Assembly: GCA_026002795.1 (NCBI GenBank)
Contig: BPGA01000001.1
Location: 360,001 to 392,000, forward strand
Source: Candidatus Saccharimonadota bacterium
GTDB lineage: Archaea; Nanobdellota; Nanobdellia; Pacearchaeales; GW2011-AR1
Direction of reading: 5' to 3'
DNA: 32,000 nucleotides
Shown here: one piece after another, positions 8,014 through 25,168 of the stretch
How positions within the stretch are numbered: the first letter of the stretch is position 1
Layout of the letters: each line of letters opens with the position of its first letter
Position numbers and translations under genes: made by a program
Notes under the pieces: generated by a model
What the model saw: the letters and a program-made list of their open reading frames with translations, nothing else
The model's database searches: none
What the model was told of the DNA's origin: nothing

Positions 8014-8601
8014 TTATCTTATTTTTAAGATTTTAAACAAAAACTCATCTGTAAGCTTTAAAATTTCTCTATCTTTTCCTTGAATAAAGACGCAATTATC
8101 TTTTTCAGTTATAGAAGTTTCATTAGAAATTTTAATAAATATAAAATTGTCAGAACAGGTTTTTTTAGGTAGACTTTCATCATTACACTCTTCATTCTCT
8201 AAACAAGCATTTTGCACTCTTTCAACAAGTCCAACAAGATTAACATACACCTCATTTTTTGCTGTTTCATCTTGTGAATAGATGTAAAGAGGTTTTTTTA
8301 GATATTTTTCAAAAGAAGAAATACCAACACCATAACTTTGGAAAGATTGTATTTCTAAAGGATTATAAGAGAAAACAAAATTTCCTAAAACCCATAGTCC
8401 GTTTCTATTTTCAAATTCATAATTTTTGTATTTTATTTTGTTTAAAGAGTTTGAAGAGCTATCTGTAGTTCCAGAATTGCTTTGTATTGCAAAACCAATT
8501 GTACCTAGAACCATCACTAAAAGTAGCACAACACCTAATATAATCTGGTTTCTTTTCCTTTTTCTTTCAGCCTCTTCTTTTGTAACAAGCTTTTTAATCA
8601 T
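8014..8601 (-). CDS. N-terminally anchored extracytoplasmic protein, unknown function (paralog of 7273-7902)
   Basis: Basic N-terminus plus TM (IILGVVLLLVMVLGTIGFAI). C-terminal block SNETSITEKDNCVFIQGKDREILKLTDEFLFKILKI shares the pattern SN.T.I...C..I..KD.EIL...F with the neighbour. AAGGAGA lies immediately before the ATG. Confidence 0.6.
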   Translation of the reverse strand: MIKKLVTKEEAERKRKRNQIILGVVLLLVMVLGTIGFAIQSNSGTTDSSSNSLNKIKYKNYEFENRNGLWVLGNFVFSYNPLEIQSFQSYGVGISSFEKYLKKPLYIYSQDETAKNEVYVNLVGLVERVQNACLENEECNDESLPKKTCSDNFIFIKISNETSITEKDNCVFIQGKDREILKLTDEFLFKILKIR

Positions 8602-8739: not shown

Positions 8740-11373
8740 TTAAGGTGATACTTTTGACATTGTTGATGTTCCACCGCTTCCAACAGTTCCTATGTATTTA
8801 GTACCTGCTGTTGTGTCTACTGATTCTGGTTGATTTATTAACCTTTGTGCAGCAGCAGCAGTTTCAGCTGCTTCATAACCAGCAACAAGTAGAGCTATCT
8901 TTCCACCAGTTCTAGAGAAGCTTTGTATTAAGAACTGGCCAGAACCAACACCTGTTGCAGAGGTCCATGCACTTCCACAGTATGCTCCACCGACCAAGCT
9001 AGCAGCAACAGTGTTTATGCAGCTTCCACCTACAACAACTAGATTCTTATTGCCAACAGATGCAACTTCATTATCAGTAACAAGCACTCCACCCAAAGAT
9101 TGAGTCTGATTTGTTGTGGATGTTCCACCAACAGAGTCTACAAAGAGCTTTGCATAAACCTGACTTGAAGGATAGGCTACTTCTGCTGTTTTTTGATCTG
9201 AATCACCAGCATCAACAGTAACCAAAGTACCCCACCAATCAACATACTTTGTGATGTCTGAATCACTCTGCAATGTTGCTGAGTACTGTGTTGGTGATGT
9301 TAGATATACACTATTGACACCAACGCCATCTGTACTTGTTCCATCACCAGGTTCTGTATCTATTACAACAACCTCATAATTGTTGTTGTCATCTTTTCCT
9401 TCAAATAAAACAACAGCTGGTGTTGTAATAACATTTGAAGCTCCTGGTGCTACCAAGTACAATTTTGTTTGGTTATCAGCGCCAGTACTCTGGAAACTGT
9501 AAGTTAATCTACCAACTGTTACATTAGCTGTATCATTGCCAGGAGCAGCGTTGGTAGTTAATAGATTTCCTCCAATACTCCAGGTGGTGTTTCCTGCTGT
9601 ACCATTTATAAGAGACGCAGTTACGCTAGTGTAACCATCTCCATCAGGGAAATTAAAGGTGCCTGCATCTGTACCACTACCATCCATATCAGCTAAGTTT
9701 AATGTTAATGGTTGGTAAAGCGCTACTAAGGCTCCTGTTTTTGTTTGAATTGTTGGATACACAACAAATGTAGCAGAATTTGCAGAATCTGAGGTTGGGT
9801 ATTTAATTCTTATTGAACCTCCAGATCCTGATCCACCACCAGGACCAGCATAAGTAATAGTGTACTCTTTTCCGCCCAACGAGAGTGTTGTTGTACCTTC
9901 TGTTGTAGGACTTCTTGCCCTTATAGTCTCACCAGAAAGAACATCCCTAAATTGTACAATATCACTTCCAGCTGTACTTGAGTCGTTAGATACAGAATCT
10001 ACCTGAAGTAAGTAGCCGTTCTCTTCATTACCCAAGACAACATACTGGTCTTCTGTGAGATTTGCCATTTCAATTACACTAATTGTAAAGTTGCTATCAT
10101 CTCCTAAAAAGAATTGATTACTTTGGTTGTGAGCCCAATCAAATGTCTTTGTATTACCCCTGTGATCTGTCATTGTTAGTGATAGTGTATCATCTCCTAC
10201 TACACCAACACTCAACGACTCTCTTGCTGGGTCATCTAAAGGAGAACTCAATCCAACAAAAGATAATTTAAATGTTCCAAATACAGGATCAACAAAACTC
10301 GATCCCGCAACAATAGCATCGTTGCTTGTACTTGGAGCAAAAACAGCTATAGCTATTTCAGTTGTTGAATTTGTGCCACCTACAATGTAAACTAATGTGC
10401 CATCAACAGAGGTATCGTCAGAACCAACTTTAACATTATTTCCATTGGAAAGAGTCACTTTTTGTGCTCCTGCAATAACTGTTGCAGATAGCTGGAAATT
10501 TGTTTCATCAGCATTCTTAACAGCAACCTCTAGCCCTTGGATCTTTTTAACATTACCCTCATCTACTTCAGCAGTACTGCTTCTTCCAGCACTATCAGTT
10601 ACTTTTAAAGTAGCTGCAGTATCAGAAGCTGAAACTAACTCAATTGTATATGTTGAGCCGCCAACAGTTACACTTGCACTTCTAGAATCGCTTGTTAAGG
10701 TAACTGTTTGAGCTTCTTTTAACAACACAATATTACTACTATCTGTTGCTGTTGAAACAGTAAAGGTCTGCCCAAACAACTTTATCTCCTGGTTTTCAGA
10801 ATCTGGGCTTGTAAAATTAACAGCCTTACTGAAAATTACAGATGCATTATACAATGGATTTGATGTTGCACTTGTACCCAAACTAACTCCAATTACAGGG
10901 TCATTACTTGTTTTAGGCTGCCTTGCAAAAATAACTTTTCCAGAGTTATCTCCACCAGCAGGAGCACCTGCCTGTAATTTTATAGTATGGGTTAATCTTG
11001 CATCAACATTTCCAGAAAAGGTTGTATCTGCAAGTAAGTTAGGCATTTCTGTTTTTGTAAGACTGCTTCTTGCAGTATTTAATGATGTATTAAGCCAGAT
11101 TCTTGTAGAGCTAGTGTCTAATGAAACAGCAGAACTACTTAAGGATACATCACCCCCACTGCTTACCAAGCCTTGCAACCAGTTTGCAATGTTTGTTGCT
11201 TGAGTTTGGTCAAGTCCTTGTGGAGCAGCTGAACCATATACAACTGCAAAATCACCTACACCATTTTGAACAAAAGGAGCAGGAGCAGCAGCTGCAGCAG
11301 CAACCCCAGCTGTCATACCAATCATTAAAGCACTTGTTGCAAGCGCTGATATTTGTCTAAAATTAAATTTCAT
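8740..11373 (-). CDS. S-layer protein (Methanococcales/Thermococcales-type S_layer_N / S_layer_C-like ends), 877 aa
   Basis: Signal peptide MKFNFRQISALATSALMIGMTAGVAAAAAA|PAP. The N-terminal block DFAVVYGSAAPQGLDQTQATNIANWL and the C-terminal block NLVVVGGSCINTVAASLVGG...GKIALLVAGYEAAETAAAAQRLI resemble the conserved ends of archaeal S-layer proteins. Thr/Ser/Gly/Ala/Val-rich, Lys-poor, many N-x-S/T sequons. Strong AGGAGGT upstream, dedicated terminator hairpin downstream, and clearly higher G+C than its neighbours. Confidence 0.75.
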   Translation of the reverse strand: MKFNFRQISALATSALMIGMTAGVAAAAAAPAPFVQNGVGDFAVVYGSAAPQGLDQTQATNIANWLQGLVSSGGDVSLSSSAVSLDTSSTRIWLNTSLNTARSSLTKTEMPNLLADTTFSGNVDARLTHTIKLQAGAPAGGDNSGKVIFARQPKTSNDPVIGVSLGTSATSNPLYNASVIFSKAVNFTSPDSENQEIKLFGQTFTVSTATDSSNIVLLKEAQTVTLTSDSRSASVTVGGSTYTIELVSASDTAATLKVTDSAGRSSTAEVDEGNVKKIQGLEVAVKNADETNFQLSATVIAGAQKVTLSNGNNVKVGSDDTSVDGTLVYIVGGTNSTTEIAIAVFAPSTSNDAIVAGSSFVDPVFGTFKLSFVGLSSPLDDPARESLSVGVVGDDTLSLTMTDHRGNTKTFDWAHNQSNQFFLGDDSNFTISVIEMANLTEDQYVVLGNEENGYLLQVDSVSNDSSTAGSDIVQFRDVLSGETIRARSPTTEGTTTLSLGGKEYTITYAGPGGGSGSGGSIRIKYPTSDSANSATFVVYPTIQTKTGALVALYQPLTLNLADMDGSGTDAGTFNFPDGDGYTSVTASLINGTAGNTTWSIGGNLLTTNAAPGNDTANVTVGRLTYSFQSTGADNQTKLYLVAPGASNVITTPAVVLFEGKDDNNNYEVVVIDTEPGDGTSTDGVGVNSVYLTSPTQYSATLQSDSDITKYVDWWGTLVTVDAGDSDQKTAEVAYPSSQVYAKLFVDSVGGTSTTNQTQSLGGVLVTDNEVASVGNKNLVVVGGSCINTVAASLVGGAYCGSAWTSATGVGSGQFLIQSFSRTGGKIALLVAGYEAAETAAAAQRLINQPESVDTTAGTKYIGTVGSGGTSTMSKVSP

Positions 11374-11856: not shown

Positions 11857-12207
11857 ATGCAGCTTATCAAATCAAAACAAAAAACACTTAGTTTAGAAAA
11901 CCATAAAGGAGCTTTCTCTTTATTTAAAAAAGCAGAAGAAGGGATAAATTTTAATGATATTTTTGAGTTAAGAAGTATCTTAAGCAACGAAAAAGCAAAA
12001 ATTTTGTACATTATAAAACACGAGAAGCCCGAATCTATTTATAAGCTTTCAAAGCTTTGTGGAAGAAGTTTTAGAGCTGTATTAAGAGATGTAAAAATGC
12101 TTGAAAAATTTGGGTTTATTAAAATTATTAAAGAAAAAAACAAGCTTAAAATAAGGCATAGGCCTGTTATTGATATAGAAAACCTTGTTTTGAACTTTAA
12201 AATATAA
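11857..12207 (+). CDS. Winged helix-turn-helix DNA-binding protein (COG4190/ArsR-like small regulator)
   Basis: Pattern LRSILSNEKAKILYIIKHEKPESIYKLSKLCGRSFRAVLRDVKMLEKFGFIKI (helix-turn-helix plus wing), followed by a C-terminal RPVIDIENLVLNFKI, as in small archaeal wHTH regulators. Confidence 0.6.
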   Translation: MQLIKSKQKTLSLENHKGAFSLFKKAEEGINFNDIFELRSILSNEKAKILYIIKHEKPESIYKLSKLCGRSFRAVLRDVKMLEKFGFIKIIKEKNKLKIRHRPVIDIENLVLNFKI

Positions 12208-12248: not shown

Positions 12249-12755
12249 TCAATAATAAATTTTAAAAGAAACTTTTAATGCTTGTTGAGAGGTTGTAAAA
12301 TCCTGTAAAGAGCCTTTATAATTGTTAGTTATATTTCCTTTTCTTATCTCTATTATGTTTTTTAAGCTACTTTGCATTAAAAACTCATAACCTTTTATTG
12401 GAGTGTTTTCAATTGGCCAGCTTGCATCTAAAATACCTTTTATTGTTTCATTTAAAACATCACAGCTTGGTCTTCCATCTAAACAATTTACTTCATCAAC
12501 ACACTGAAAAGCAAGCTTTCTTATTGTTAAATTTCCTGAAGAGTCTGAACAGCTTGTTGTATATTGAAGAGAAGCCTGAATAAAACTTTCAACCTCATAG
12601 CTTTCAACAGATTGTTTTGTTCCTGCTCTTAAAACAAAAAACAAAATTCCTAAAATGATTATTGAAACAAGTATAACAATAATAGCAAAACCAACCATCT
12701 CTTCTTGTGCTTTTTTCGGTTTTTTTAAAACTACTTTTTTTGTCAAATCTCGCAT
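12249..12755 (-). CDS. Class III signal peptide (type IV pilin-like) protein, 168 aa
   Basis: N-terminus MRDLTKKVVLKKPKKA|QEEMVGFAIIVILVSIIILGILFFVL: a basic stretch ending KKAQ followed by a hydrophobic helix. Four Cys in the ectodomain. Last gene of the seven-gene minus-strand cluster. Confidence 0.65.
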   Translation of the reverse strand: MRDLTKKVVLKKPKKAQEEMVGFAIIVILVSIIILGILFFVLRAGTKQSVESYEVESFIQASLQYTTSCSDSSGNLTIRKLAFQCVDEVNCLDGRPSCDVLNETIKGILDASWPIENTPIKGYEFLMQSSLKNIIEIRKGNITNNYKGSLQDFTTSQQALKVSFKIYY

Positions 12756-12786: not shown

Positions 12787-13311
12787 CTACTCTTTTAATT
12801 TATATGTTACAATGACCTTTGCAAGCTCACAAACATTTACTTGTCTAGCTTTTTCTTCATCATAATCTTTTCTACATAAAGCAGCAAAATTTGAAAAAGA
12901 TGTTCCTGAATCTGTGTTTTTTATTATGATGCTGTTGCAATTAGGATAATTTTCTTGAGTACATTCAATTTTTTCTTCAGATTTAGGAAAAACTTTTCTT
13001 ATTTCAATTCCAGAAACTTCCCAAAAATTTCCATACAGGTTTTGATATTTTTTTAGAGCCATGATTTTGTCAGAGTCTATACAATTTCCTTCACTCCTTT
13101 CAAAAGCATTTCCACAAGAAAACTCAGGAGAATTTGAGAGTTTAGAGACTAAAAGCAAAGCCTCTCTTTGCTCTACTAACTCAGAAGATCCTTTAATTCC
13201 AGAAAAAACAAAAGTTAAAAGAAAAAGACCAGCTATTGCAAAAAATAAGCTGACTGCAATTAACATAAATGCCATTTGTTGTATTTTTATTTGTGCTTTT
13301 TTTTCTTTCAT
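12787..13311 (-). CDS. Class III signal peptide (type IV pilin-like) protein, 174 aa
   Basis: N-terminus MKEKKA|QIKIQQMAFMLIAVSLFFAIAGLFLLTFVF. Six Cys in the ectodomain. 31-nt gap to the downstream gene. Confidence 0.65.
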   Translation of the reverse strand: MKEKKAQIKIQQMAFMLIAVSLFFAIAGLFLLTFVFSGIKGSSELVEQREALLLVSKLSNSPEFSCGNAFERSEGNCIDSDKIMALKKYQNLYGNFWEVSGIEIRKVFPKSEEKIECTQENYPNCNSIIIKNTDSGTSFSNFAALCRKDYDEEKARQVNVCELAKVIVTYKLKE

Positions 13312-13332: not shown

Positions 13333-14268
13333 TTACCAGAGTTTACATCTAGCTCTTTCATTTGATAATTCTGCATCATCAGCAAAATTCTTAACAAAAG
13401 TTAAATCATCTGAACTGTTGTAAGAGTTTAACGAGTTTATTAAAGGAAGCAGATTCACTTCAGAGATACATCCTTGATTTGCAAGAATGTTTGTCTTTTC
13501 ATTATAAATTCTTGAAAGAATTTCTGCTCTTTTCATAAGCCTTTTAACATTACACTCATAATCTTGTTTGTTGTTAGAGAATATGGCAGCATAAAGTAAA
13601 GCATCTGTTTCGTAATAAACTTCTTCTCTTTCTAAGCTAACTGTTTTTAAATTTTCATTTACGAAAACATTACAGCCAGTTCTTGATTTGAAACAGATTT
13701 TTTTTGAATTTGAAGGACAATCTTTAACAAATAAATTTTCTTGATTTAAATTTGAAATTTCTCTTTCTATGTTTTTAGGAGCATCTAAAAAACAATAGCT
13801 TTCATCAGAAGATGTAAAATACATTAAATCAGCTACTTTAAAAGGAAATTCAAAAGGCTTTGTAAAAACAAAAAATTTTTTTCCTTGAACAGTCTTATTT
13901 GAAAAAATATATTTATTTTCTGAGACTAAAGAAAAATCAGTTGAAACAAACTTGTTTGATATTTTTTGTTTTAGAGAGATTTCTTGTTTACCAAAATCAG
14001 TAAAACTAGAACAAGAAAAAATTAATTGGGTTTCAGTAGGCATATCAATAGAAATAGAGCTTCCAGATTCAGGACCAGATTCTAAAGGATTTAATAAAGA
14101 TTCAAACTCTTGAGAAAGCTCAGCAGAAACTTTTTCTTCACCAACATTAATGACTCTAGTTGAAGCATAGATAGCAATAAAAATTATTATTGCACCAACA
14201 ATTATTGCAAAAACCCATGCAAAAGGAAACTGAAGTTGTGCTTTTTTATTCAGTTTTTTTAACGACAT
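13333..14268 (-). CDS. Class III signal peptide (type IV pilin-like) protein, 311 aa
   Basis: N-terminus MSLKKLNKKA|QLQFPFAWVFAIIVGAIIIFIAIYAS. Eight Cys in the ectodomain. 21-nt gap to the downstream gene. Confidence 0.65.
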   Translation of the reverse strand: MSLKKLNKKAQLQFPFAWVFAIIVGAIIIFIAIYASTRVINVGEEKVSAELSQEFESLLNPLESGPESGSSISIDMPTETQLIFSCSSFTDFGKQEISLKQKISNKFVSTDFSLVSENKYIFSNKTVQGKKFFVFTKPFEFPFKVADLMYFTSSDESYCFLDAPKNIEREISNLNQENLFVKDCPSNSKKICFKSRTGCNVFVNENLKTVSLEREEVYYETDALLYAAIFSNNKQDYECNVKRLMKRAEILSRIYNEKTNILANQGCISEVNLLPLINSLNSYNSSDDLTFVKNFADDAELSNERARCKLW

Positions 14269-14322: not shown

Positions 14323-14829
14323 TCAAGCTCTCTCTAATGAAACTGTTCTATCTGTGAATTCTTTTAAAATTCTAATTTTAATTTTTCCGCCGTTAGAATT
14401 GATACAATAAGGATTTTCTTCAGAAGTTATTTCTTCAATATTTATGTTTTTTATTGAGGCAGAATCTATACCAGTGTGTTTTATAGGATAAAATACCATG
14501 TTTTCAGATCCTTCTTTTACTTTCTTTAATTCAACATAAATTAATGAGTCTTTTCCTTTTGAAGGAACTGAAAAATCAACAAAACAAACTTTTGTGTATT
14601 TTGTTGGAATGAAATACTCTCTTACTTCTGAGCTTTGTGAGCTTTTCCATGCAGTATCAACATCTGCTTGCAATTCTTTTATAAAATTTCCTGCTTTTGC
14701 ATTATCTTGAAACCTCAAAAAAGCCCTTATGCCATAAAAACCAAAAATTAGAAAGAAAATTATTAGAATTATTGAGATTATCATTCCAAAAGAAATCTGC
14801 ATTTGTGATTTTTTAGTTCTTTTTTTCAT
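14323..14829 (-). CDS. Class III signal peptide (type IV pilin-like) protein, 168 aa from ATG 14829
   Basis: N-terminus MKKRTKKS|QMQISFGMIISIILIIFFLIFGF. The track start at 14844 is a TTG; the ATG five codons downstream gives the same short basic leader as the paralogs. Two Cys. ATTAATAAA sits about 29 nt upstream of ATG 14829 and is a possible internal promoter. Confidence 0.65.
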   Translation of the reverse strand: MKKRTKKSQMQISFGMIISIILIIFFLIFGFYGIRAFLRFQDNAKAGNFIKELQADVDTAWKSSQSSEVREYFIPTKYTKVCFVDFSVPSKGKDSLIYVELKKVKEGSENMVFYPIKHTGIDSASIKNINIEEITSEENPYCINSNGGKIKIRILKEFTDRTVSLERA

Positions 14830-14980
14830 TATGATTAAAATCAAAAACAGTTTATTAATCTAACTTTTCATTGGCATTAACATAATAAATTTTTAAAATA
14901 AAAATAAGATTTATTTCAAAAGTTAAGGAAGTATAAATTTAATGAAGTGTACTTTCTTTTTACAAAAATTAAATTTTTTA

Positions 14981-17401
14981 TTAAACTTGGAAAGCTTTTG
15001 CAATTAAAGTACATCCGTTTACAGGAGGCTGATTTCCAAATTTATCTTGACATTTTATGTAGAAGTTTTTATTAGGATCCCAAGAAACAGTGTGTTCTAT
15101 GTTGTTTCTTGTTGTCATGTTTGATCCGTCTTCCATGTTGTATGTACACGCTATTTTGTCAGAAGTACTATAAACACAAGAAGATTCTTCATCAGTTATA
15201 ACTTTTAGATTATTTTGATCACTGAAAACTCTTACAATAACTGGCGGTTCTTTATCTACTTCAACTCTAAAGTTTATTTGCTTTGTGTCTATATTACCGC
15301 CTAAATCAATACAACTTACATAAAATGTATGATCTCCCTGAACAAGATTTAATTCTTGCTGATGTTTGTTAGTTCCTGTTGTGAGAAACTGAATATATGT
15401 TCCCTCTTCTCCAGTATCACTATAAGAGCATATTGCTTCTCCATTTTTGTAGCCAGCAAAAGTTTCTGCTTCTAGAGTTACTTTAACAACCCTTGTAGAA
15501 TCTTTTATTGTTGTTGAGTTAGGAGCTAGAGAAGAAATTATTAAAGGCCTTGTTCCAATTAAAGTATACTTGTATGATTGTTTGTTTACATTTCTTCTTG
15601 ACTCATTTTCAGTTCCTTTTAAATGAGGCTGGTCTAAACATCTAAAGTAAAATACATTATCTTGCCTGTCTTTTAATCCAGTTAAAGTTGTTTTACATTG
15701 ATATGCTTGTCTGTTGTTAAAGTTAAATAAATTTTGTTCACATTCCATGTTATTTTCCATGTTTTCATAACTCTGATCTAGTGTTGACCATTTGCATTCT
15801 GAAGGTTCATTTAGATAGGCACTAATGTTTATTTCTGTTGTATTACTAGATATTGGTTTACCGTTTGGAAGAGAAAAATCAAGAATTAGAGGAGGACTTG
15901 TGTCTGGACCCTGATCAACACAAAATCTAAAGACAATGTTGTTTAAATTAAAGTTTCCATTAACATCCTGACATCTAGTGTAAATAGTGAATTCTCCGTT
16001 GCTCTTTAATGTTATATCTTCAGATTGTAATGCTTCAGTACTTGGTATTTGTATTGTTTCAGAATGATTATATCTATTGAGAGAACTTCCTCCAAAGTAT
16101 CTAGACATGCTTTCAAAATCTCTTTTATTTACAACATCAAGCTTGCATTTTCCTGGTTCGTTTAAAGTAACGCCAAATCTTAAAGGAGTATAAGGCTGTA
16201 CACAACCATTAACATTATTTTCAGGAACAATTCTATAACCTCTGTCTGGAGGAGAGGTTTTGTCATCTGGAATATATTTATAACCTAAAGGTAAAACATC
16301 ATTCCAAGGAGTTATTACAGGAGGAGTTGTGTCATCTTTTCTTAACCAAGCGCATTTTTCTTCTGGAGTTCCTTTGTTTATAATTTCACAAGCCTGTCCA
16401 AGGCTTTTACATCTGTATTCAGTACAAGGAATATCTCCTTTATTACACTCTTCACAATTCTGGCCGCCTGTTACAGCATCCCATGGCAAACAAGAAAATT
16501 CAACAGCATCATAGCGCGTTTTTTTGAAGCTTAAAGCAAAAATAAGCGCTCCAACTACAGCTCCACCTATTAAAGCCACAACAGTACTTGCGCCAAATAC
16601 ACCTGCAAGAACTCCCTTTCCAAAAAAATAACCACCAGCTAATCCCCGAGAAAAAGCTTCTCTAAATTCAGGAGATCCTATTTTTAAAAAATTTAAGACA
16701 AATTTAGTTCCGAAATAAATTGCAACCGCTACTCCAGCATTTTCAATTAATCCTCCAAGAGTTGTCTTTCCAACTTTTGTTGATAAAATTCCTCCTAAAA
16801 ATCCTCCACCTGTCTGTTTTCCAGCTTCACCACCTTGTTGAGTATCTCCTTTTTTTGATTTGTTTAGTATTCTATCCAGCTCTCTTTGACCTATATCAGA
16901 TATTTTTCTTTCTGCAGCTTTTACAGGGATATCCGCTACAGTGGGTACTATACCTTTAATAACTGAATCTCTTTGCTTATTTCCAGAAGATTTTGTAAGA
17001 CTAGGACAGCTTTTTATTACAGAACTTTTTAAAGTGTACTGGCCGCTTCCTCCGCTAGCTTCAGCAGGATCATTGCAGAGTTGCTTTCTAAAACCCTCTC
17101 CTAACCAATTCCTACAAAAATAATTTATTGTATAAACTTTTCCTGTATAATCACCAGAAGGCTCTACACAATTACTATAACAAACAACATTATTTCCATC
17201 AATTCTCCAATAAGCTCCGCTACCAATTTGTACACATTGAGAAGTTTGTGTTTGCTGGGCGCTAACTAAATTATCTCTTGAAATTAAATAAGAAAAAGCA
17301 AAAATACTTAAAGTCATTAGAATTATTTCTAAAAAAACAACAAAATTCTTTTTAATTTTTTTATTAAACTTTTGTTTTTTATCAATTTTTTGAAATTTCA
17401 T
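14981..17401 (-). CDS. Large multi-domain envelope protein (806 aa): N-terminal anchor, Cys-rich modules, Gly-rich hydrophobic segment, four tandem beta-sandwich repeats
   Basis: N-terminal TM (FVVFLEIILMTLSIFAFSYLI). A 6-Cys module at aa 56-132. A Gly-rich hydrophobic region at aa ~186-292 (GGGFLGGILS...AGGYFFGKGVLAGVFGASTVVALIGGAVVGALIFALSF). A 7-Cys knot at aa 304-350. Four repeats of ~90-140 aa, each opening with a Pro-rich strand (TTPPVITP, TSPPLILD, TRPLIISS, EPPVIVRV) and ending with Y..C.D..GN (YTRCQDVNGN, YFRCLDQ, YVSCIDLGGN, YIKCQDKFGN). Confidence 0.7.
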   Translation of the reverse strand: MKFQKIDKKQKFNKKIKKNFVVFLEIILMTLSIFAFSYLISRDNLVSAQQTQTSQCVQIGSGAYWRIDGNNVVCYSNCVEPSGDYTGKVYTINYFCRNWLGEGFRKQLCNDPAEASGGSGQYTLKSSVIKSCPSLTKSSGNKQRDSVIKGIVPTVADIPVKAAERKISDIGQRELDRILNKSKKGDTQQGGEAGKQTGGGFLGGILSTKVGKTTLGGLIENAGVAVAIYFGTKFVLNFLKIGSPEFREAFSRGLAGGYFFGKGVLAGVFGASTVVALIGGAVVGALIFALSFKKTRYDAVEFSCLPWDAVTGGQNCEECNKGDIPCTEYRCKSLGQACEIINKGTPEEKCAWLRKDDTTPPVITPWNDVLPLGYKYIPDDKTSPPDRGYRIVPENNVNGCVQPYTPLRFGVTLNEPGKCKLDVVNKRDFESMSRYFGGSSLNRYNHSETIQIPSTEALQSEDITLKSNGEFTIYTRCQDVNGNFNLNNIVFRFCVDQGPDTSPPLILDFSLPNGKPISSNTTEINISAYLNEPSECKWSTLDQSYENMENNMECEQNLFNFNNRQAYQCKTTLTGLKDRQDNVFYFRCLDQPHLKGTENESRRNVNKQSYKYTLIGTRPLIISSLAPNSTTIKDSTRVVKVTLEAETFAGYKNGEAICSYSDTGEEGTYIQFLTTGTNKHQQELNLVQGDHTFYVSCIDLGGNIDTKQINFRVEVDKEPPVIVRVFSDQNNLKVITDEESSCVYSTSDKIACTYNMEDGSNMTTRNNIEHTVSWDPNKNFYIKCQDKFGNQPPVNGCTLIAKAFQV

Positions 17402-17415
17402 TTTTGAGTTTATTC

Positions 17416-19077
17416 TTAACCTTTATAATCTTCACTCCATCTTACTATACTTCTATTTATGAAACCTTTTTGACCAAGATAATTTAGCTTTTCACCACAA
17501 TCTCCTAAAGAGATACACATATTCATTTTTTCAGCAAACCATTTGTTGTTGGTAGTTGCTTTTTTTATACTATCACCTTTTTTTAATCCTAAACACTCAC
17601 AATTCTCTTTACACTCCCAATCACCTAATAATCCTTTTTGAAATTTTACAAGGCAAGTATCACTAGCTATTGCGCATAATTCATCTGCATTTCCTTCTTC
17701 CCAAAAATTAAATCCAGGAGGATAAAGAGGAAGGCAGCTAGCTCCTTTTCTAGTGTCATCTTTTTTTCTCTCGACAAGCTCTCCTCTTTCATTTACAACT
17801 AAAGGATTTCCAGAATCATCTTTTAAAATACTCTGTCCTTCTACCCATTTACAATCTCTAACATCTCTATTTTCACAATCTTGCTTGCTTGTTTGTAAAA
17901 CACAATCATCCCATCTATTAGCAACACAGCCAGCTGACTTAAATCCAGGAACAACTTCTTCTTCTATACATACAGTATTTCTAAAAGGATCACAAAGAGT
18001 AACAGTAACCTCACCACTATAACAAGCAAATACAGCATGTTCAGACCCTGGAGAATTTTCATTTCCTTTTGTTCCAGTTGTTCCGCACCATCTTTCTCCG
18101 TGTTGATATGTTTTTCCTTGATATTTACAACTTAAATCAGCACAAACAAAATCACCATATGAAGGTTTTACAGGAGTTTGAGGATCGTTTCTTCTATATG
18201 CTTTACATAGACTTCCGAGCAAATAATTACAATTTCCACAGCTTGCAGAATTTGCGTTGCTTGAATCAGGATTACAACTTTCAGCTGGATCTTTTATGTA
18301 AGTCCAGTACTCTTGATTGTTAACTTTTGATGAATCATAAACATTAGCAATATTACCACAGCTATCAATAAAGTAAACTTCATCTTTATTTTCAACACAC
18401 GTTGTTTTTGAAGTTGGAGCGCATTGTGTTGCTAAAACTTCTGCCGTGCATAAAAGTCCTTCATGAAACTGAACTTTTGTGTCTGAGGAGGATTTTTTTT
18501 CAAGAGAGATACACTCTGATCTTGTTGTTCTCTTACAACTTCTCTCAAATCCTTTTTCTAAAACACAAGCTCCTTCAACATCAGGATTTGCGCTTAAAAT
18601 ACATTCACTTTCAGAGTTTATATCTGGTCTGAAAGTTGTATTAGTTCCATAATCAGAGGCTAAAGTTTTACATCTTATTTGATTTACAAATGCAGTGTTT
18701 TGTCCTATAAAGCAGCAACCACGTTTGCATTGTGGAATTTCATCTTCTTTTTTATCAAACCAAACTCCTCCAGAATTTTGACAAACAATCTGAGGAGTAT
18801 TTCCCGTACACTGGCCAGTATTTACATTTACACATGTTCCTAATTTACAATAAGATGTTGATTCACAAGAAGTTGGAGCTTTTCTGAATCCAGAAGCACA
18901 TTCTGCAGGAGGAGAAGGCTGACACCAATTTCCTGCTGTTGTTTTTTCACAACAAAACGATTGTTGTTGCTCTTGAGCAGAAATTCTCTTATTCAAGAAA
19001 ATGAAGAATAAAGCAAACACAAACAAAATTACAACTAAAAACACAAAACCTCTTTTGATTTGTTTTTTATCTAACAT
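17416..19077 (-). CDS. Cysteine-rich secreted/anchored protein (553 aa, 43 Cys by my count), unknown family
   Basis: The N-terminus MLDKKQIKRG|FVFLVVILFVFALFFIFL could be either a class III or an ordinary signal (ISA|QEQ). The rest has a Cys every ~12 residues, including CC pairs (SFCCEK, RGCCFI, ENCEC). I recognise no family motif. 14-nt and 16-nt gaps to the flanking cluster genes. Confidence 0.7.
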   Translation of the reverse strand: MLDKKQIKRGFVFLVVILFVFALFFIFLNKRISAQEQQQSFCCEKTTAGNWCQPSPPAECASGFRKAPTSCESTSYCKLGTCVNVNTGQCTGNTPQIVCQNSGGVWFDKKEDEIPQCKRGCCFIGQNTAFVNQIRCKTLASDYGTNTTFRPDINSESECILSANPDVEGACVLEKGFERSCKRTTRSECISLEKKSSSDTKVQFHEGLLCTAEVLATQCAPTSKTTCVENKDEVYFIDSCGNIANVYDSSKVNNQEYWTYIKDPAESCNPDSSNANSASCGNCNYLLGSLCKAYRRNDPQTPVKPSYGDFVCADLSCKYQGKTYQHGERWCGTTGTKGNENSPGSEHAVFACYSGEVTVTLCDPFRNTVCIEEEVVPGFKSAGCVANRWDDCVLQTSKQDCENRDVRDCKWVEGQSILKDDSGNPLVVNERGELVERKKDDTRKGASCLPLYPPGFNFWEEGNADELCAIASDTCLVKFQKGLLGDWECKENCECLGLKKGDSIKKATTNNKWFAEKMNMCISLGDCGEKLNYLGQKGFINRSIVRWSEDYKG

Positions 19078-19093: not shown

Positions 19094-19900
19094 TTAGTAT
19101 ATTGCTATTCTTGATGCTTCATGTCCTGGAGACCATTCTAAGCTTCTTGAAGCAAATTGAAATTTATCTCCGCTTCTTCTGTCTGTTATAATATAAACAA
19201 CTCCCTCTCTTTCTCTTGATATTTTTTCAACTTTAATCCACCTAAATATGTCCATGTAAATTGTAGGATCAGCATCTCCTAATGAAGCTTCAAACTCAAG
19301 TATACTATTAGCAATCCAAACAAGTTCATAAAGATTACTGTTCACAACAATCTCAAAATCTTTAAATGTTTGTGTGTTTCCTTTTGTTACAGTTATTTCA
19401 TTAGTAGTATTAACAATAATTCTTTTAGGCACAAGCCTGACATTTAAATTTCCTTTCTTAAAGTTAACATTGTAACCTCTATCTTCATAATTTCTCACGA
19501 GCTGATTAAAACAAAAATTAAACTCTTCTTCAATTTCTTTTTTAATTTCATTTTCTATATGACTCTGTAAAAAAGGTTTTTGAACAACACATGTTTTAAA
19601 ATCTTCTGCAGTGTAACAAGCATACTCTATTTTATAACCTTTATACTCTAGATAACCTTCTGGATTTGCGCTTCCTCCTTGTAAAGAGATAGTTTCAATA
19701 GCATTATTTAGAGATTCCTCAATACAATTTTGTATGAATGTCTGAGGATTTGTTTCTTCAAATCTTTCAGTTGTTCTTGCACTTCTATTTAAAAAATAAA
19801 TAGACAAAATTGCACCAACTGCTAAAATAGCTATTATAATAAAAATAGCAACCTGGCCTTTCTTAAAAAAAGAACCACCCCTTTTTAAAAAATTTCTCAT
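19094..19900 (-). CDS. Class III signal peptide (type IV pilin-like) protein, 268 aa; first gene of the cluster
   Basis: N-terminus MRNFLKRGGSFFKKG|QVAIFIIIAILAVGAILSIYFL, the textbook archaeal prepilin motif KG|Q followed by a hydrophobic helix. Four Cys. TTTTTAAAT sits about 30 nt upstream of the ATG. Confidence 0.7.
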   Translation of the reverse strand: MRNFLKRGGSFFKKGQVAIFIIIAILAVGAILSIYFLNRSARTTERFEETNPQTFIQNCIEESLNNAIETISLQGGSANPEGYLEYKGYKIEYACYTAEDFKTCVVQKPFLQSHIENEIKKEIEEEFNFCFNQLVRNYEDRGYNVNFKKGNLNVRLVPKRIIVNTTNEITVTKGNTQTFKDFEIVVNSNLYELVWIANSILEFEASLGDADPTIYMDIFRWIKVEKISREREGVVYIITDRRSGDKFQFASRSLEWSPGHEASRIAIY

Positions 19901-20788: not shown

Positions 20789-22072
20789 ATGGATAAAATA
20801 GAAAAAATCAAGAGAGTTGCTCTTATTTATTATTCAAGACCAGAAGTTCAAGAAGCAATATTCAATTTTTCTAAAAATAGAGAGTTTATTCCAAAGTATT
20901 TTGATATTTTCGGAAAAAGACCAGATTCTCTTCAGTACAAAGGAGATATTTTTGAGTTTGTTAAGAAAGGAGCTACAAGCTTCCACTGTTCTCAAGAATT
21001 GTGGAAAAATCCTTTAGACTTGTCTACTGAAAAAACAGAAAAAGAGCTAAATGAAATGAGAATTGGATGGGATCTTGTTCTTGATGTTGATTCTAAGTAT
21101 TTTGATTATAGTAAAATTTTAGCAGAATTAATAATTGAAGTTTTAAGATTTTATGGGGTTAATAATTTCCTATTAAAGTTTTCTGGAAGCAAAGGATTTC
21201 ATATCATTATTCCTTGGAAAGCTTTTCCAGAAGAGCTTAATGGAATAAAAACAAAAGATATGTTTCCTGAATGGCCTAGAATAATTACTAAATTTTTAAT
21301 TGAAACAACTAAACCAAAACTTACAGAAAGAATTTCAAAACTTTTGAATTTAAGCAAGCACGTTCTTGATAGAGAAGCAATAAAAAAAGTTATGCCTGAT
21401 CTTATTCTTGTTTCATCAAGACATTTATTTAGAGCGCCTTATTCTTTACACGAAAAAACTATGTTAGCTAGTGTTGTCATAAATCCGGAAGAGATAAAAA
21501 ACTTTGACTTAAAAGACGCAAACCCATTAAACCTAAAAATTAAAAAATTTAATGATTTTAATCAGAATGTCAAAGAAGGAGAAGCAAAAAAACTTCTCAT
21601 TGAAGCTTTAGATTTTTTTAAATCAGAAAATCCAGATTTTAGTTTAGAAAAAAACGAAAAAACAGAAGATTTTAGAAAAATAAAAATAGAAAAACTTTCT
21701 GAGGAAATTTTACCTCCAACAATTAAAAAAATTCTTCAAGGAATGGAAGACGGCCGGAAAAGATCTTTATTTATTCTTATAAATTTCTTTAGAGCAATTG
21801 GCTTAGAAAAAAATGAAATTGAAAATATTATTTTTGAATGGAATAAAAGAAACAAAGTTCCATTGAAAACAGGTTATATAAAAGCTCAGCTTTCTTGGAG
21901 TTATAGAAACAAAATAGTGCCCCCGCCTAACTATGATAAGGATTATTATTTAGGTATAGGCATAATACCAACAGAAGAAGAAATGAGACTAAAAAACCCG
22001 GTAAATTTTGTTTCGAGAGTTGTAAAGAGTTTAAATAAAAATTCTAAAGGCAGTAAAAGAAAATCAAAATAG
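20789..22072 (+). CDS. priS: DNA primase catalytic subunit PriS fused to a PriL-CTD-like helical domain
   Basis: AEP motifs I (WDLVLDVDS), II (FSGSKGFHIIIPW) and III (RHLFRAPYSLHEKT). From about aa 305 (nt ~21701) comes LPPTIKKILQGMEDGRKRSLFILINFFRAIGLEKNEIENIIFEWNKRN...YIKAQLSWSYRNKIVPPPNY. This resembles the PriL C-terminal domain but lacks its Cys ligands. The protein ends in a Lys-rich tail. Confidence 0.85.
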   Translation: MDKIEKIKRVALIYYSRPEVQEAIFNFSKNREFIPKYFDIFGKRPDSLQYKGDIFEFVKKGATSFHCSQELWKNPLDLSTEKTEKELNEMRIGWDLVLDVDSKYFDYSKILAELIIEVLRFYGVNNFLLKFSGSKGFHIIIPWKAFPEELNGIKTKDMFPEWPRIITKFLIETTKPKLTERISKLLNLSKHVLDREAIKKVMPDLILVSSRHLFRAPYSLHEKTMLASVVINPEEIKNFDLKDANPLNLKIKKFNDFNQNVKEGEAKKLLIEALDFFKSENPDFSLEKNEKTEDFRKIKIEKLSEEILPPTIKKILQGMEDGRKRSLFILINFFRAIGLEKNEIENIIFEWNKRNKVPLKTGYIKAQLSWSYRNKIVPPPNYDKDYYLGIGIIPTEEEMRLKNPVNFVSRVVKSLNKNSKGSKRKSK

Positions 22073-22115: not shown

Positions 22116-23912
22116 ATGAAAAAAAATTTGATTTTTGTTTTAATGTTTGTTGTAGTTTTAAGCTTATCTTTTATTAGTTCCCAATTATTAAACTCTAGTG
22201 AGCAACAAAAAAGGGTAAATCAGGCTTATTCTTGTTTGGATAGTAAGATAAAAGGAAAATGCTCTTCTCTTTCAATAGAAGAAAGAATTTTTTCTTTTTT
22301 ATCAACAGGCCAGTGCAGACAAGAGATGATTTCTTCTTCTAAAAACGGAGAGTGCTGGCCACAAACAACAGGAGAGTGTAAAATTAAAACAACTGCCCAA
22401 GCAATTCTTTCATTAGAAAATAACAATGTAGATTCTACAAAACCAAAAAATTGGCTTCTTAATAAAACAAAAAATCCGACAGAACTTGTTTGGTATCTTC
22501 AAATTGATAGTAATGAAGCAACTTCTTGTACAATAGGCTATAGAGGTCAGACATACAATGTAAATATAAATGAAAATAAAATTTTAAGTAATAATGCTGG
22601 TGCATGTTTAATAGTTTCTGAAAACGGATATTGGTTTCAAATTTCTTCTTCTTGTTATAATGAAGAGATAACCATTTCTTGCGATAAAGATTTTTTAACT
22701 TCTCTTTTATTTAAAAAAACAACTTCTTCAACAATAAATGTTCTTCCAGAAGTTTCTTCTGCATCAGCAGGAGGAACTACAAGAGAAAAAGTAGAATCAT
22801 TATGTTTTGTTGAAGGAAACTCTTGTAATTATGAAGGGAGTCTTTGGGCTACTCTTGCTCTAGCTTCTTTGGGAGAAGAGACAAAACAGTATATGCCTTA
22901 TTTAGTTGCTTTAGCTGATGAAAATCCAAAGTTTCTTCCAGAATCTTTTTTGACATATCTTACAGGAGATTCTTCTTATAAAGCTGCTTTAATCTCAAAA
23001 CAAAAAGAAAGTAGTTATTGGTTAGAATCTGGAGACAAATTTTATGATACAGCTCTTGCTCTTTATCCTTTGCAAAAAGAAAGCTTAGAAGAAGTTGAAA
23101 ATTCTAAAAATTGGCTTTTAACAAATCAAGATAGAAACGGTTGTTGGCAGGATAGCTTAAAAAATACTGCTTTTATTTTGTTTTCAGTATGGCCTAAAAA
23201 ATTAGTTAGTAGTGATGGAAGCGGTGTTTCAGATTGCGAGTCATCTGGTTTTTATTGTACAACAATAGCTGGTTGTGAAGGAGAAATTTTATCAGAATAT
23301 AGTTGTCCTTCTTCGTACCAGTGTTGTAATAAACAACCAGTTCAAACAACCTGCTCTGAAGAAGGAGGAATTGTTTGCTCTCAAAATGAGAGATGTGTTG
23401 GTGGTACAACATTAGGCACTCCTGATTTAAGACTTGGAGAAAGTTGTTGTATTGGAGGGAGTTGTCAAGAGGCAGAAGAAGAAAGAAGTCTTTCAGATTG
23501 CGAACTTCAAGGAGGTGTTTGTAGAGCTAACTCTTGCGAAGAAAATGAAGAAGAAAAGGCATTTTCATGTAATTTACAATCTGAAGTTTGTTGTATGATA
23601 AAAATTAAAGAAAAGAAAAGTAATTTGCTATTTTGGATTCTTTTCATACTTGTTTTGTTAGTTGCATTAGGAATAATCTTCAGAGAAAAATTAAGGCATT
23701 ATTGGTTTAAATTCAGGGATAGTTTTGGAAAAAAGAAAGGACCCCCAACAACACCTCCTAAATACCCAAGTACTCCAACACAACCTTACCCTGTGCATAG
23801 AACAATAGAAAAACATTATGTTCCTGTTCAGAAAAAAATGCCATTAAAAAAAACATCTTCTCATGAGGAATTAGATGAAGTCTTAAAAAAACTTAAAGAA
23901 ATGGGTAAATAA
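22116..23912 (+). CDS. Type I membrane surface protein: alpha/alpha-toroid (prenyltransferase/terpene-cyclase QW-like) ectodomain, three Cys-rich modules, TM, Pro-rich cytoplasmic tail
   Basis: Signal peptide MKKNLIFVLMFVVVLSLSFISS. QW-like repeats KNWLLTNQDRNGCWQDSLKNTAFILFSVWP, SSKNGECWPQTTGECKIKTTAQAILSL and KQKESSYWLESGDKFYDTALALYPL. Three C-x6-7-C-x4-5-C...CC modules at aa 374-493 (nt 23235-23594). TM LLFWILFILVLLVALGIIF. Tail KGPPTTPPKYPSTPTQPYPV. Confidence 0.65.
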   Translation: MKKNLIFVLMFVVVLSLSFISSQLLNSSEQQKRVNQAYSCLDSKIKGKCSSLSIEERIFSFLSTGQCRQEMISSSKNGECWPQTTGECKIKTTAQAILSLENNNVDSTKPKNWLLNKTKNPTELVWYLQIDSNEATSCTIGYRGQTYNVNINENKILSNNAGACLIVSENGYWFQISSSCYNEEITISCDKDFLTSLLFKKTTSSTINVLPEVSSASAGGTTREKVESLCFVEGNSCNYEGSLWATLALASLGEETKQYMPYLVALADENPKFLPESFLTYLTGDSSYKAALISKQKESSYWLESGDKFYDTALALYPLQKESLEEVENSKNWLLTNQDRNGCWQDSLKNTAFILFSVWPKKLVSSDGSGVSDCESSGFYCTTIAGCEGEILSEYSCPSSYQCCNKQPVQTTCSEEGGIVCSQNERCVGGTTLGTPDLRLGESCCIGGSCQEAEEERSLSDCELQGGVCRANSCEENEEEKAFSCNLQSEVCCMIKIKEKKSNLLFWILFILVLLVALGIIFREKLRHYWFKFRDSFGKKKGPPTTPPKYPSTPTQPYPVHRTIEKHYVPVQKKMPLKKTSSHEELDEVLKKLKEMGK

Positions 23913-23944: not shown

Positions 23945-25168
23945 ATGGGAAAAATTTTATCTTTTTTGTTTATAGCTTTTTTATTTGCAATTTTTTTTGT
24001 AAATAGCATTTCTGCAGTCGAAATTAGTTTTTTTAAAGAGTCAAAAAATTTTTCTCAAGGAGAGACTATAATTTTTAAGGTGTCTGGAAATTTTATAGAT
24101 CAAATTACAAGAGAAAACATACTTTTTTTTAAAGATTCAGTAAGAATTCCTTTTGAATTTAATGTTGTTAAAATCTCTAATGATTTTTATGTTTATGCTT
24201 CTAGTTTATTTAAAAACGAAGGAAATTATTCTTTTGAAATAATTGATGTTAGATATTATAAAGGAATTGTTGTTAGTGATGAAAAAATTAAAGAAAATTT
24301 CACAATAAATTCAAAAATAGCTGACTTTTCTATAAATCCAGCAGCAATTAACACAAATACAAATTTCTTTATTGAAATAACTAATTTAAAAGATAAGAAA
24401 ATTGATATAGAAATTAAAAAACCAAAAGAAATTTTTTTAGAAGAAAGTAAAATATCTTTAAATTCAGGAGCAACAAGAAAATTAAACTTTATCCCATTAG
24501 AAAATTCTCAAGGACTTTACTTTATAGAGTTTAAATCTTCTTCAACAAATTACAAAATACCTATTTTTATAAAACAAGAAAACAAAACAACAAAAGAAGA
24601 AAAATTCGAATTCCAACCTAAAGAGATAAGCATTTTAATGCCAACAAATAGCACTTCAAAAAGAATTATCTATTTAGTTAATCTAGGAGAGAAAATTGAA
24701 GAAATCAATTTTCTTTTTTTAGGAAATGCCTCTTCTTTTTTAAAATTAGTTCCAGACAAAATAACTGAACTTGAAGAGAACGAAACAAAAAAAATAGAAC
24801 TTTTAATAAACTCGGATTTTGAAGAAAAAAATCTTTCAGCAACAATTCTCGCAAATTCTAATTCATCTTCTTCAGAAATTAAAGTTTTTTTAAGCTTTAT
24901 TAAAGATTTTGTCGAGAATGAAACAGAAGAAAATGCATCAAAAATAGTTAATTGTAAAGATATTAACGGAGAGATATGCAAAGAAGGATTTAAGTGTACT
25001 GGAGAGATAACTTATGTTAAAGATGGACCTTGTTGTTTATCTCCTGCTGTTTGCAAAGAAATTGAAAAAAAATCAAACAAAGGAAAGGTTATTGGTTGGG
25101 TAATTTTAATAGTGATAATTCTAATGGTTATTTTATTTTATAAAAAGTATAAAGGTGTTCGAAGATAA
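23945..25168 (+). CDS. Secreted beta-rich surface protein with one Cys-rich juxtamembrane module and a C-terminal TM anchor
   Basis: Signal peptide MGKILSFLFIAFLFAIFFVNSISA|VE. Asn/Lys/Ile-rich ectodomain with many N-x-S/T sequons. Module CKDINGEICKEGFKCTGEITYVKDGPCCLSPAVC (nt 24953-25054) matches the modules of the upstream gene. Terminal VIGWVILIVIILMVILFYKKYKGVRR. Confidence 0.6.
   Translation: MGKILSFLFIAFLFAIFFVNSISAVEISFFKESKNFSQGETIIFKVSGNFIDQITRENILFFKDSVRIPFEFNVVKISNDFYVYASSLFKNEGNYSFEIIDVRYYKGIVVSDEKIKENFTINSKIADFSINPAAINTNTNFFIEITNLKDKKIDIEIKKPKEIFLEESKISLNSGATRKLNFIPLENSQGLYFIEFKSSSTNYKIPIFIKQENKTTKEEKFEFQPKEISILMPTNSTSKRIIYLVNLGEKIEEINFLFLGNASSFLKLVPDKITELEENETKKIELLINSDFEEKNLSATILANSNSSSSEIKVFLSFIKDFVENETEENASKIVNCKDINGEICKEGFKCTGEITYVKDGPCCLSPAVCKEIEKKSNKGKVIGWVILIVIILMVILFYKKYKGVRR

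Follow-up and report, generated by a model that had tools for sequence, protein, structure and literature searches.

We analysed a window of 32,000 nucleotides from the genome of Candidatus Saccharimonadota bacterium (GTDB lineage Archaea; Nanobdellota; Nanobdellia; Pacearchaeales; GW2011-AR1; assembly GCA_026002795.1, contig BPGA01000001.1, positions 360,001 to 392,000), centring on a minus-strand gene for a protein of 553 amino acids with 43 cysteines, called Cys553 here; all positions given below are those of the window. The window has a G+C content of about 28% and carries housekeeping genes for PCNA, a PriS-PriL-type primase, NusG/Spt5, L11, prefoldin, and an AspRS/LysRS-type synthetase; this archaeal gene content, with a pacearchaeosortase and its PACE-CTERM substrate, points to a Pacearchaeota-type member of the DPANN Nanoarchaeota as its source. 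Cys553 is the second gene of a seven-gene operon on the minus strand, in the order p268, Cys553, p806, p173, p311, p174, and p168, with intergenic gaps of 14 to 136 bp; the operon is followed by a divergent helix-turn-helix (HTH) gene of the HVO_A0114 type and by a surface layer (S-layer) gene of the S_layer_C family. Taken together, the sequence comparisons make it probable that Cys553 is an exported, disulfide-knotted subunit of a membrane-anchored surface complex, the complex being a conserved core feature of the Pace- and Woesearchaeota. The features most directly concerned are these:

17416 to 19077, minus strand: Cys553 gene, 553 amino acids with 43 Cys; mature chain of 519 amino acids, about 57 kDa, isoelectric point 5.2.
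18976 to 19077, minus strand: Sec-type signal peptide of Cys553, residues 1 to 34, with an AxA-like site across homologs and a predicted cut at ISA/QEQ.
17497 to 17517, minus strand: conserved C-terminal motif of Cys553, M-C521-ISLGD-C527-G, with the codon of C521 at 17515 to 17517.
14981 to 17401, minus strand: gene of the 806-amino-acid partner p806, described from its AlphaFold model (mean predicted local distance difference test score [pLDDT], 81.1), from Foldseek, and from natural fusions.
16352 to 16492, minus strand: juxtamembrane 7-Cys module of p806 (C304, 316, 319, 326, 331, 338, and 350), with the codon of C304 at 16490 to 16492.

The 43 cysteines of Cys553 (positions 42, 43, 52 and so on to 521 and 527) make up 7.78% of its residues, in agreement with an earlier note, written from the sequence, which had put the figure at about 8% and had recognised no domain. 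Across the other 30 open reading frames, 123 of 8786 residues are Cys, and at this rate of 1.4% the binomial probability of at least 43 Cys in 553 residues is 4.6e-19. PriS, from which the contrast with cytoplasmic proteins had been drawn, does have 1 Cys in 427 amino acids. The vicinal and near-vicinal motifs described earlier are present (SFC42C43EK, RGC121C122FI, and ENC493EC495), and the protein also holds one CxxC (C280-G-N-C283) and one CxC.

The N terminus had been read in two ways, as a prepilin-type G/F cleavage site or as a signal peptidase I site. All 59 homologs with a recognisable N terminus begin with a basic n-region and a hydrophobic core, and in each of them an AxA-like site closely precedes the first Cys; cleavage is typically at VSA/VGE, a few residues ahead of this Cys, and the family pattern is xSA/VGE..SYCCEKT. 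A prepilin-like motif of any kind ([KR][GA] followed by hydrophobic residues) occurs in only 6 of the 59. Prepilin cleavage of Cys553 at KRG/F was rejected on this count, and with it the idea of a pilin-fused protein; Cys553 itself does not belong among the proteins with class III signal peptides. Because the AxA-type site is universal among these homologs and the prepilin-like motif rare, Cys553 is predicted to be an ordinary Sec substrate, which signal peptidase I would cut after ISA34. No hydrophobic segment was found in Cys553 beyond the signal peptide, and since this is the only one, the mature protein would have no anchor of its own. The word "ectodomain" used for it earlier thus holds as far as export is concerned but not as a separate membrane-anchored layout, the whole mature protein being meant.

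Among 257 relatives of Cys553, cysteines are gained and lost by twos. At least 34 Cys columns of the family are invariant; the pairs that are lost together are 43-60, 90-117, 227-291, 268-280, 362-384, 468-527, and 489-493 (numbering of Cys553), and some family members have one extra pair. Because the cysteines are lost in pairs, the pattern indicates that they are structural disulfides. Export, conserved cysteines, and paired gain and loss place Cys553, at the level of sequence, in the class of disulfide-bonded extracytoplasmic proteins, and the Sec signal peptide of the homologs together with the paired changes favours the earlier picture of a heavily disulfide-knotted exported molecule. A division by cellular location runs through the window as a whole. 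The predicted cytoplasmic proteins have 0 to 3 Cys each, except for the tRNA synthetase with 6, and among the exported or anchored proteins the counts are even (2, 4, 4, 6, 4, 2, 8, 6, 4, 30, and 6), the odd-count exceptions being Cys553 (43) and p806 (27). The five pilin-like families of the operon have 4 (p268), 2 (p173), 8 (p311), 6 (p174), and 4 (p168) Cys, and these counts are even in 90 to 100% of orthologs. Such a split by location implies that extracellular disulfides are probably formed systematically.

The two odd-count proteins are encoded next to each other. The model of p806 begins with a signal helix, a small beta domain (residues 55 to 130), and a disordered linker (136 to 213); three hydrophobic or amphipathic helices follow (215 to 238, 244 to 268, and 273 to 291), then the 7-Cys module and 4 to 5 beta-sandwich domains. 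C304 sits 13 residues past the last membrane helix. The C-terminal part of p806 (C-part) has 21 conserved Cys, namely the 7 of the juxtamembrane module and 14 that form seven pairs in immunoglobulin (Ig)-like domains. In Foldseek it matched tandem Ig/FN3/cadherin arrays and bacterial adhesin stalks at E values of 1e-14 to 1e-9, with 513 matches at E<=1e-3, and Big_13 matches from Pfam are found in p806 homologs; by model, Foldseek, and Big_13, p806 contains a tandem Ig-like array. Tandem Ig-like adhesin stalks, such as GhpA of Aureispira and the extender regions found in large adhesion proteins, resemble this C-part (E 1e-11 to 1e-10), a likeness that concerns p806 alone and not Cys553 and that is one of generic beta-sandwich similarity. 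The disulfide-paired Ig-like domains and the covariation with Cys553 described below argue that the C-part is extracellular.

No homology of Cys553 to p806 was found in the window apart from the signal peptide; the link between them runs via fusion paralogs. Many genomes encode fusions of 1050 to 1500 amino acids, built in this order from a Cys-rich domain paralog, a Gly-rich or hydrophobic region, and the p806 C-part. One such protein, of 1267 amino acids (locus L003), is 33% identical to Cys553 (E 2e-74) and 34% identical to the p806 C-part (E 4e-90), and 33 fusions are found among the top 150 cluster representatives. An extra upstream module, consisting of a second p268 and a fusion, precedes p268-Cys553-p806 in at least 39 of 84 related loci, so p268, the Cys-rich domain, and the p806 C-part duplicate as a unit. 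In some related loci (L017, L040, and L042) the module has expanded repeatedly, with the Cys-rich domain present three times and as many as three p806 C-parts arranged in tandem. The membrane region of the fusions lies between the counterparts of C521 and C304, an arrangement that would place the two side by side on its outer face.

The total number of cysteines is odd in 177 of 220 stand-alone members of the Cys553 family and in 66 of 77 p806 orthologs, and C521 is the only cysteine of Cys553 that is lost singly. It is missing from 30 relatives, 26 of which have an even total, and a neighbour-joining tree with parsimony gives about 11 independent losses. C527, in the invariant GDCG, was considered as the free cysteine and rejected, as it covaries with C468 whereas C521 is lost singly. 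The loss of C521 is mirrored in the neighbouring gene: informative loci with a Cys-rich protein devoid of C521 number five (L085 [P0077], L087 [P0202], L088 [P0132], L090 [P0253], and L094 [P0171], from five separate clades), and in every one of them C304 is missing from the downstream p806 homolog. The segment FSC304LPWDA is replaced there by TSYVWDA, QVQVWQPG, FKSNPWHA, FNSPVWQS, or FESVVWQP, and the complete p806 homologs of these loci have an even Cys total. Informative loci are those with the p806 partner gene on the contig; the contigs of the others end before it. Conversely, C304 is kept in 72 of 72 loci with C521, and no discordant locus was seen. Fisher's test gives p = 5e-8 for the association, a value that is not corrected for phylogeny, and we put the emphasis on the five independent clades. 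An even total in 27 of 33 fusions was rejected as independent proof of pairing, since two odd numbers always add up to an even one; all that it tells is that each half keeps its odd Cys. Intergenic covariation, odd Cys parity, and the natural fusions are most simply read as a predicted interchain disulfide between C521 and C304, which would make Cys553 and p806 a covalent heterodimer.

Cys553 belongs to a large unnamed family of DPANN Nanoarchaeota (Pace- and Woesearchaeota). A word-indexed search returned 674 relatives; the best 120 are full length, 40 to 60% identical, and without a Pfam domain, and the sources named among them are Nanoarchaeota, Pacearchaeota, Woesearchaeota, Diapherotrites, and unclassified "archaeon." A profile of the family, searched against 1.84 billion cluster representatives, found at least 1681 clusters (50% identity) at E<=1e-3, of which 936 reached E<=1e-30. 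When each GTDB species was represented by a single genome, a scan gave 426 loci, the best 80 of which are nearly all from Pace-, Woese-, or Nanoarchaeota. No description of the family or the operon was found in the searchable literature, and the gene is nowhere annotated; the family would merit a domain entry of its own. The closest mention is a table entry for a DPANN-specific secreted protein family beside S-layer-like genes (PMC6393860; Makarova et al. 2019), which may refer to other genes of the same neighbourhood.

No domain family of Pfam-A (no match at E<=1), NCBIfam, or PHROGs was found in Cys553, and PDB sequences searched with the single sequence and with the family profile gave no match. 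An AlphaFold2 model built on a 60-sequence alignment (mean pLDDT 84.6; 289 residues at >=90; predicted template modelling score, 0.56) consists mostly of beta-hairpins and short helices. The C-terminal tail has low pLDDT despite the invariant residues G525, D526, C527, G528, and N532. With this model, Foldseek found nothing at E<=1e-3 in PDB and BFVD, the TM-score on the query being at most 0.1; the best, marginal matches (E 0.1 to 1) were VWF D'D3, factor XII, and TNFR-type modules. The eukaryotic TNFR Cys-rich domains and EGF, VWC/VWD, and furin-like modules are alike in style, as dense conserved Cys frameworks made largely of beta-hairpins, but differ in that they reach Foldseek E values of 0.1 to 1 at best, with TM-scores below 0.1 on the Cys553 query, and have no Pfam match to it. 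Pfam, PDB profile, and Foldseek searches thus assign Cys553 to none of the known Cys-rich families, as had been suspected from its lack of EGF, TNFR, furin-like, or other familiar Cys spacing, and the modelled fold, which has no recognisable relative within the PDB and BFVD libraries, appears to be a new Cys-rich one. As candidate internal repeats, segments of the N-terminal half (beta-hairpin plus helix modules) match each other with hhalign probabilities of just 35 to 37%, too little for such repeats to be claimed. No homology was found to the other Cys-rich protein of the window, of 598 amino acids, and a viral or defence origin was rejected, as there is no PHROGs match and no relative on IMG/VR contigs.

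Apart from Cys553 and p806, the operon consists of five smaller genes for pilin-like proteins; these, with the genes that follow the operon, are listed below, together with the conserved start of each family:

19094 to 19900, minus strand: p268, pilin-like, immediately upstream of Cys553; class III leader KKGQ/VAIFIIIAIL, 4 conserved Cys; family start GQ/VTIFIIIAI.
14323 to 14844, minus strand: p173, pilin-like; KKSQ/MQISFGMIISIILII here, [KR]GQ/MKLSFGMIFSIILII in the family; family start GQ/MKLSFGMIFSIILII.
13333 to 14268, minus strand: p311, pilin-like; KKAQ/LQFPFAWVFAIIVGAIIIF, 8 Cys; family start G[FY]/LQISFAWLFAIIVGA.
12787 to 13311, minus strand: p174, pilin-like; KKAQ/IKIQQMAFMLIAVSLFF, 6 Cys; family start [GA]Q/MKIQQMAFMLIAVTLFF.
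12249 to 12755, minus strand: p168, pilin-like; KKAQ/EEMVGFAIIVILV, 4 Cys; family start [GA]Q/EEMVGFALIIIIV.
11857 to 12207, plus strand: HTH regulator of the HVO_A0114 family (PF25212, E 1.6e-15), located between the operon and the S-layer gene in 45 loci.
8740 to 11373, minus strand: S-layer-like protein (S_layer_C, PF05124, E 1.4e-10), a conserved downstream neighbour.

In all five pilin-like families (45 to 77 orthologs each), the leader is free in length and sequence, and conservation sets in sharply at [KR][GA]Q/ and continues through a hydrophobic stretch; all five proteins are predicted to carry class III (prepilin-type) signal peptides and, by sequence, belong to that class. The N-terminal segments of p173 and p311 are related (hhalign probability 96.6%), the N-terminal 82 amino acids of p311 being homologous to p173, and the other pairs of segments gave 11 to 77%. 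Pfam recognised none of 96 members of these families, and the p268 profile found nothing in PDB. The listed reading frame of p173 opens at TTG, and comparison with orthologs makes an ATG about six codons in the probable true start; the residue ahead of its cleavage site, usually Gly or Ala, is Ser in this genome (KKSQ/M).

The gene set is kept together. When the proteins of the window were compared by tblastn with 84 related loci, counting those with enough sequence present, p268 lay directly upstream of the Cys-rich gene in 73 of 73 loci, a p806 C-part was found in 41 of 41, and the full set of four small pilin-like genes in 34 of 41. A few genomes have the operon in two parts, the break lying after the Cys-rich gene. 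The placement of Cys553 inside a pilin-like operon, from which the earlier note had argued, therefore holds, both in the class III leaders of the neighbours and in the conservation of the flanking genes; the lack of co-conservation that would have refuted the note is not what was observed. Small genes of toxin-antitoxin type (ParE, HEPN/nucleotidyltransferase, and PemK) are repeatedly inserted inside or adjoining the operon in different genomes (L085, 13740 to 14194; L086, 942 to 1603; L091, 2759 to 3444; L040, 9675 to 10037; L076, 9346 to 9998; and L093, 2916 to 3245).

The mechanism that we propose starts with Sec export of the preprotein and the predicted signal peptidase I cut behind ISA34, as the conserved signal peptide pattern shows; the 519-amino-acid mature chain would then adopt a multidomain new fold with about 21 intrachain disulfides, seven of them backed by co-loss. 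Its poorly ordered C-terminal tail (MC521ISLGDC527G..NY.G) would dock on the 7-Cys module of p806 just outside the membrane, where, on the strength of covariation, parity, and fusions, an interchain C521-C304 disulfide may lock the two proteins together. The central hydrophobic helices of p806 would anchor the pair in the membrane while its rod of 4 to 5 Ig-like domains projects, and p268 and the four further class III signal proteins would complete the assembly, as gene linkage suggests. As for its role, we infer that the complex is most likely a fixed envelope-spanning structure, serving in host or surface contact or as an envelope scaffold beside the S-layer. Such a fixed complex fits better than a variable adhesin or a released effector because Cys553 evolves slowly, because the operon occupies a core-genome site by the PCNA and primase genes, and because it adjoins the S-layer gene. 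In the related loci, similarity amounts to 0.83 bits per amino acid for Cys553 and 0.65 to 0.98 for the operon proteins, whose rates are thus alike and moderate, compared with 0.15 for the S-layer protein, 1.1 for the primase, and 1.4 for PCNA. Slow evolution of this kind is what one would expect of a machine part under constraint, and not of a variable adhesin. An adhesin role for Cys553, as put forward in the earlier note, is possible.

Several observations weigh against this reading. The covariation of C521 and C304 is based on five co-loss events, and the two residues could share a third partner or a metal ion instead of a direct bond. The topology of p806 is ambiguous, in that the model has three helices at 215 to 291, yet an even number of passes is needed for the C-part to lie outside. 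For many of these organisms the habitat is anoxic, a setting in which disulfides outside the cell are less to be expected, and no Dsb, VKOR, or thioredoxin-like gene was found within the window. As to the processing and assembly of the pilin-like proteins, there is no ATPase, platform, or prepilin peptidase gene at the locus, and no T2SSE-type Walker A motif of a pilus assembly ATPase was found in the window or within 10 kb to either side in about 94 related loci.

One alternative is that the complex is a tether or assembly factor lying between the membrane and the S-layer, where it would hold or organise the downstream S_layer_C protein. Synteny with the S-layer gene is kept in 42 loci, the S-layer protein has no strong C-terminal membrane anchor, the predicted tethering of Cys553 is membrane proximal, and the operon is a core gene set next to housekeeping genes, all of which would suit such a function. 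The roughly fivefold faster evolution of the S-layer protein relative to the operon proteins is, however, odd in a tight binding partner; the operon is split from the S-layer gene in some genomes, and a further putative S-layer protein (PACE-CTERM), which has a sortase of its own, is encoded nearby. We therefore regard this alternative as unlikely. Cys553 itself does not qualify as an archaeal S-layer protein, having no PF05124 or NF033506 match and no C-terminal hydrophobic segment. The SlaA/SlaB pair of Sulfolobales (canopy plus membrane stalk), like other envelope scaffolds anchored in the membrane, offers a parallel, as p806 is a membrane-anchored, stalk-like Ig rod with a soluble partner, encoded next to an S-layer gene; it differs in that there is no homology, the pairing here is a predicted disulfide, and the soluble Cys553 has what appears to be a new Cys-rich fold.

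A pilus-tip adhesin in the manner of PilY1, that is, a non-pilin protein capping a type IV pilus-like filament, primed by five minor-pilin-like neighbours and binding a host or a surface, seems to us improbable, although the earlier note had named a tip protein among its candidates. The layout, with five class III signal proteins and a large Sec-signal protein among them, recalls fimU-pilVWXY1E, and bacterial type IVa pili offer a likeness in PilY1 and its minor pilins (fimU-pilVWXY1Y2E): there, too, about five prepilin-type genes surround the gene of a large non-pilin protein, which has an ordinary signal peptide and presumably acts together with their products. The G/Q form of cleavage is known from Epd-type archaeal pilins, which are processed by a dedicated prepilin peptidase, and the leaders of the five neighbours resemble these (TFF system 1), being short and basic, with G or A at -1 and Q at +1 ahead of some 20 hydrophobic residues. 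A TFF "system 1" has been reported in methanogens, Thermococcales, and DPANN (bioRxiv 10.64898/2026.04.22.720090). On the other side stands position: the bond to p806 C304 predicted from covariation would tether Cys553 close to the membrane helix of a polytopic protein, whereas a tip must leave the membrane with the filament, and this makes a pilus-tip role unlikely. The fusions likewise put the Cys-rich domain directly ahead of membrane helices, Cys553 evolves slowly, unlike typical adhesins, and no assembly ATPase is encoded within 10 kb of the operon in about 94 loci. The C-terminal beta-propeller of PilY1/PilC (Neisseria_PilC) is not found in Cys553 (no Pfam match at E<=1, none in Foldseek). 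In comparison with PilY1, Cys553 thus has no sequence or fold similarity, a predicted covalent tie to a membrane protein, and no assembly genes nearby; in comparison with Epd-type pilins, the neighbours are unknown to Pfam, the locus has no ATPase, platform, or peptidase, and Cys553 is not a pilin.

Two further explanations have very little in their favour. That the cysteines of Cys553 ligate Fe-S clusters, zinc, or other metals instead of forming disulfides would suit their very high density, the presence of a CxxC and a CxC, and the anoxic habitats, but is most improbable given that there are no ferredoxin-type CxxCxxCxxxC motifs and no Pfam metal-binding domain, that loss is strictly by twos and never by threes or fours, and that AlphaFold folds the protein confidently without cofactors. 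We give equally little credence to a freely released effector or toxin, acting in the medium or on a host cell, for although Cys553 has a Sec signal without its own anchor and disulfide-rich proteins are often stable secreted effectors, the strict gene order with membrane and pilin-like partners, the fusion of the domain to a membrane protein in many genomes, the C521/C304 covariation, the slow evolution, and the lack of viral or defence family matches all speak against it.

Compared with the known systems, the proposed membrane-anchored complex of Cys553 and p806 is a case of a non-pilin surface protein in a prepilin-type operon, from which it differs by an apparently new fold, a predicted covalent coupling, and the absence of a co-located motor.

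Other envelope genes surround the operon. A pacearchaeosortase gene (6600 to 7127, plus strand; NF033505, E 4.5e-65) adjoins that of a PACE-CTERM "putative S-layer protein" (4165 to 5847, plus strand; NF033506, E 1.7e-101), and as this sortase-substrate pair lies about 5 kb from the operon, the region is a cell-envelope gene island. The S_layer_C gene at 8740 to 11373 (minus strand) stands out by a G+C fraction of 0.38 to 0.40, compared with about 0.28 for the window, and encodes by far the fastest-evolving protein of the neighbourhood. Downstream of it lie genes for two N-terminally anchored proteins of 209 and 195 amino acids (7273 to 7902 and 8014 to 8601, both minus strand) with 6 and 4 Cys, respectively; they are paralogs of each other (hhalign 75%), their position is conserved in related loci, and they may be the DPANN-specific secreted family of PMC6393860. 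On the other side of the operon, the primase gene (20789 to 22072, plus strand; 427 amino acids) matches both small-subunit and large-subunit primase families, an apparent PriS-PriL fusion. It is followed by genes for two exported proteins with C-terminal anchors: one of 598 amino acids (22116 to 23912, plus strand), with 30 Cys, a weak match to the alpha-macroglobulin TED (E 0.006), and three short Cys-rich repeats (C..GG.C....C...CC) ahead of the anchor, and one of 407 amino acids (23945 to 25168, plus strand) with one such repeat. Related loci keep the first of these genes beside that of the primase in 35 cases and the second in 21; neither protein is similar to Cys553.

Among uncultured archaea, the Pace- and Woesearchaeota rank with the most abundant and diverse, and their cell surface and cell interactions are almost unstudied. 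Large surface gene sets that evolve slowly and span the lineage are few in these genomes; the operon described here is one of them, and the analysis provides a model in which a Sec-exported subunit with a new fold would be joined by one specific interchain disulfide to a defined partner within a seven-gene module. The heavy use of extracellular disulfides in these archaea also raises the question of which enzyme is responsible. More tentatively, and with considerable doubt, we speculate that the operon encodes a lineage-specific surface organelle, in which a new 21-disulfide fold is covalently coupled to a membrane-embedded Ig-rod protein and assembled with five prepilin-type proteins, without a co-located motor; if this is true, the organelle could be the long-sought structure for host contact or envelope integrity in ultrasmall archaea.

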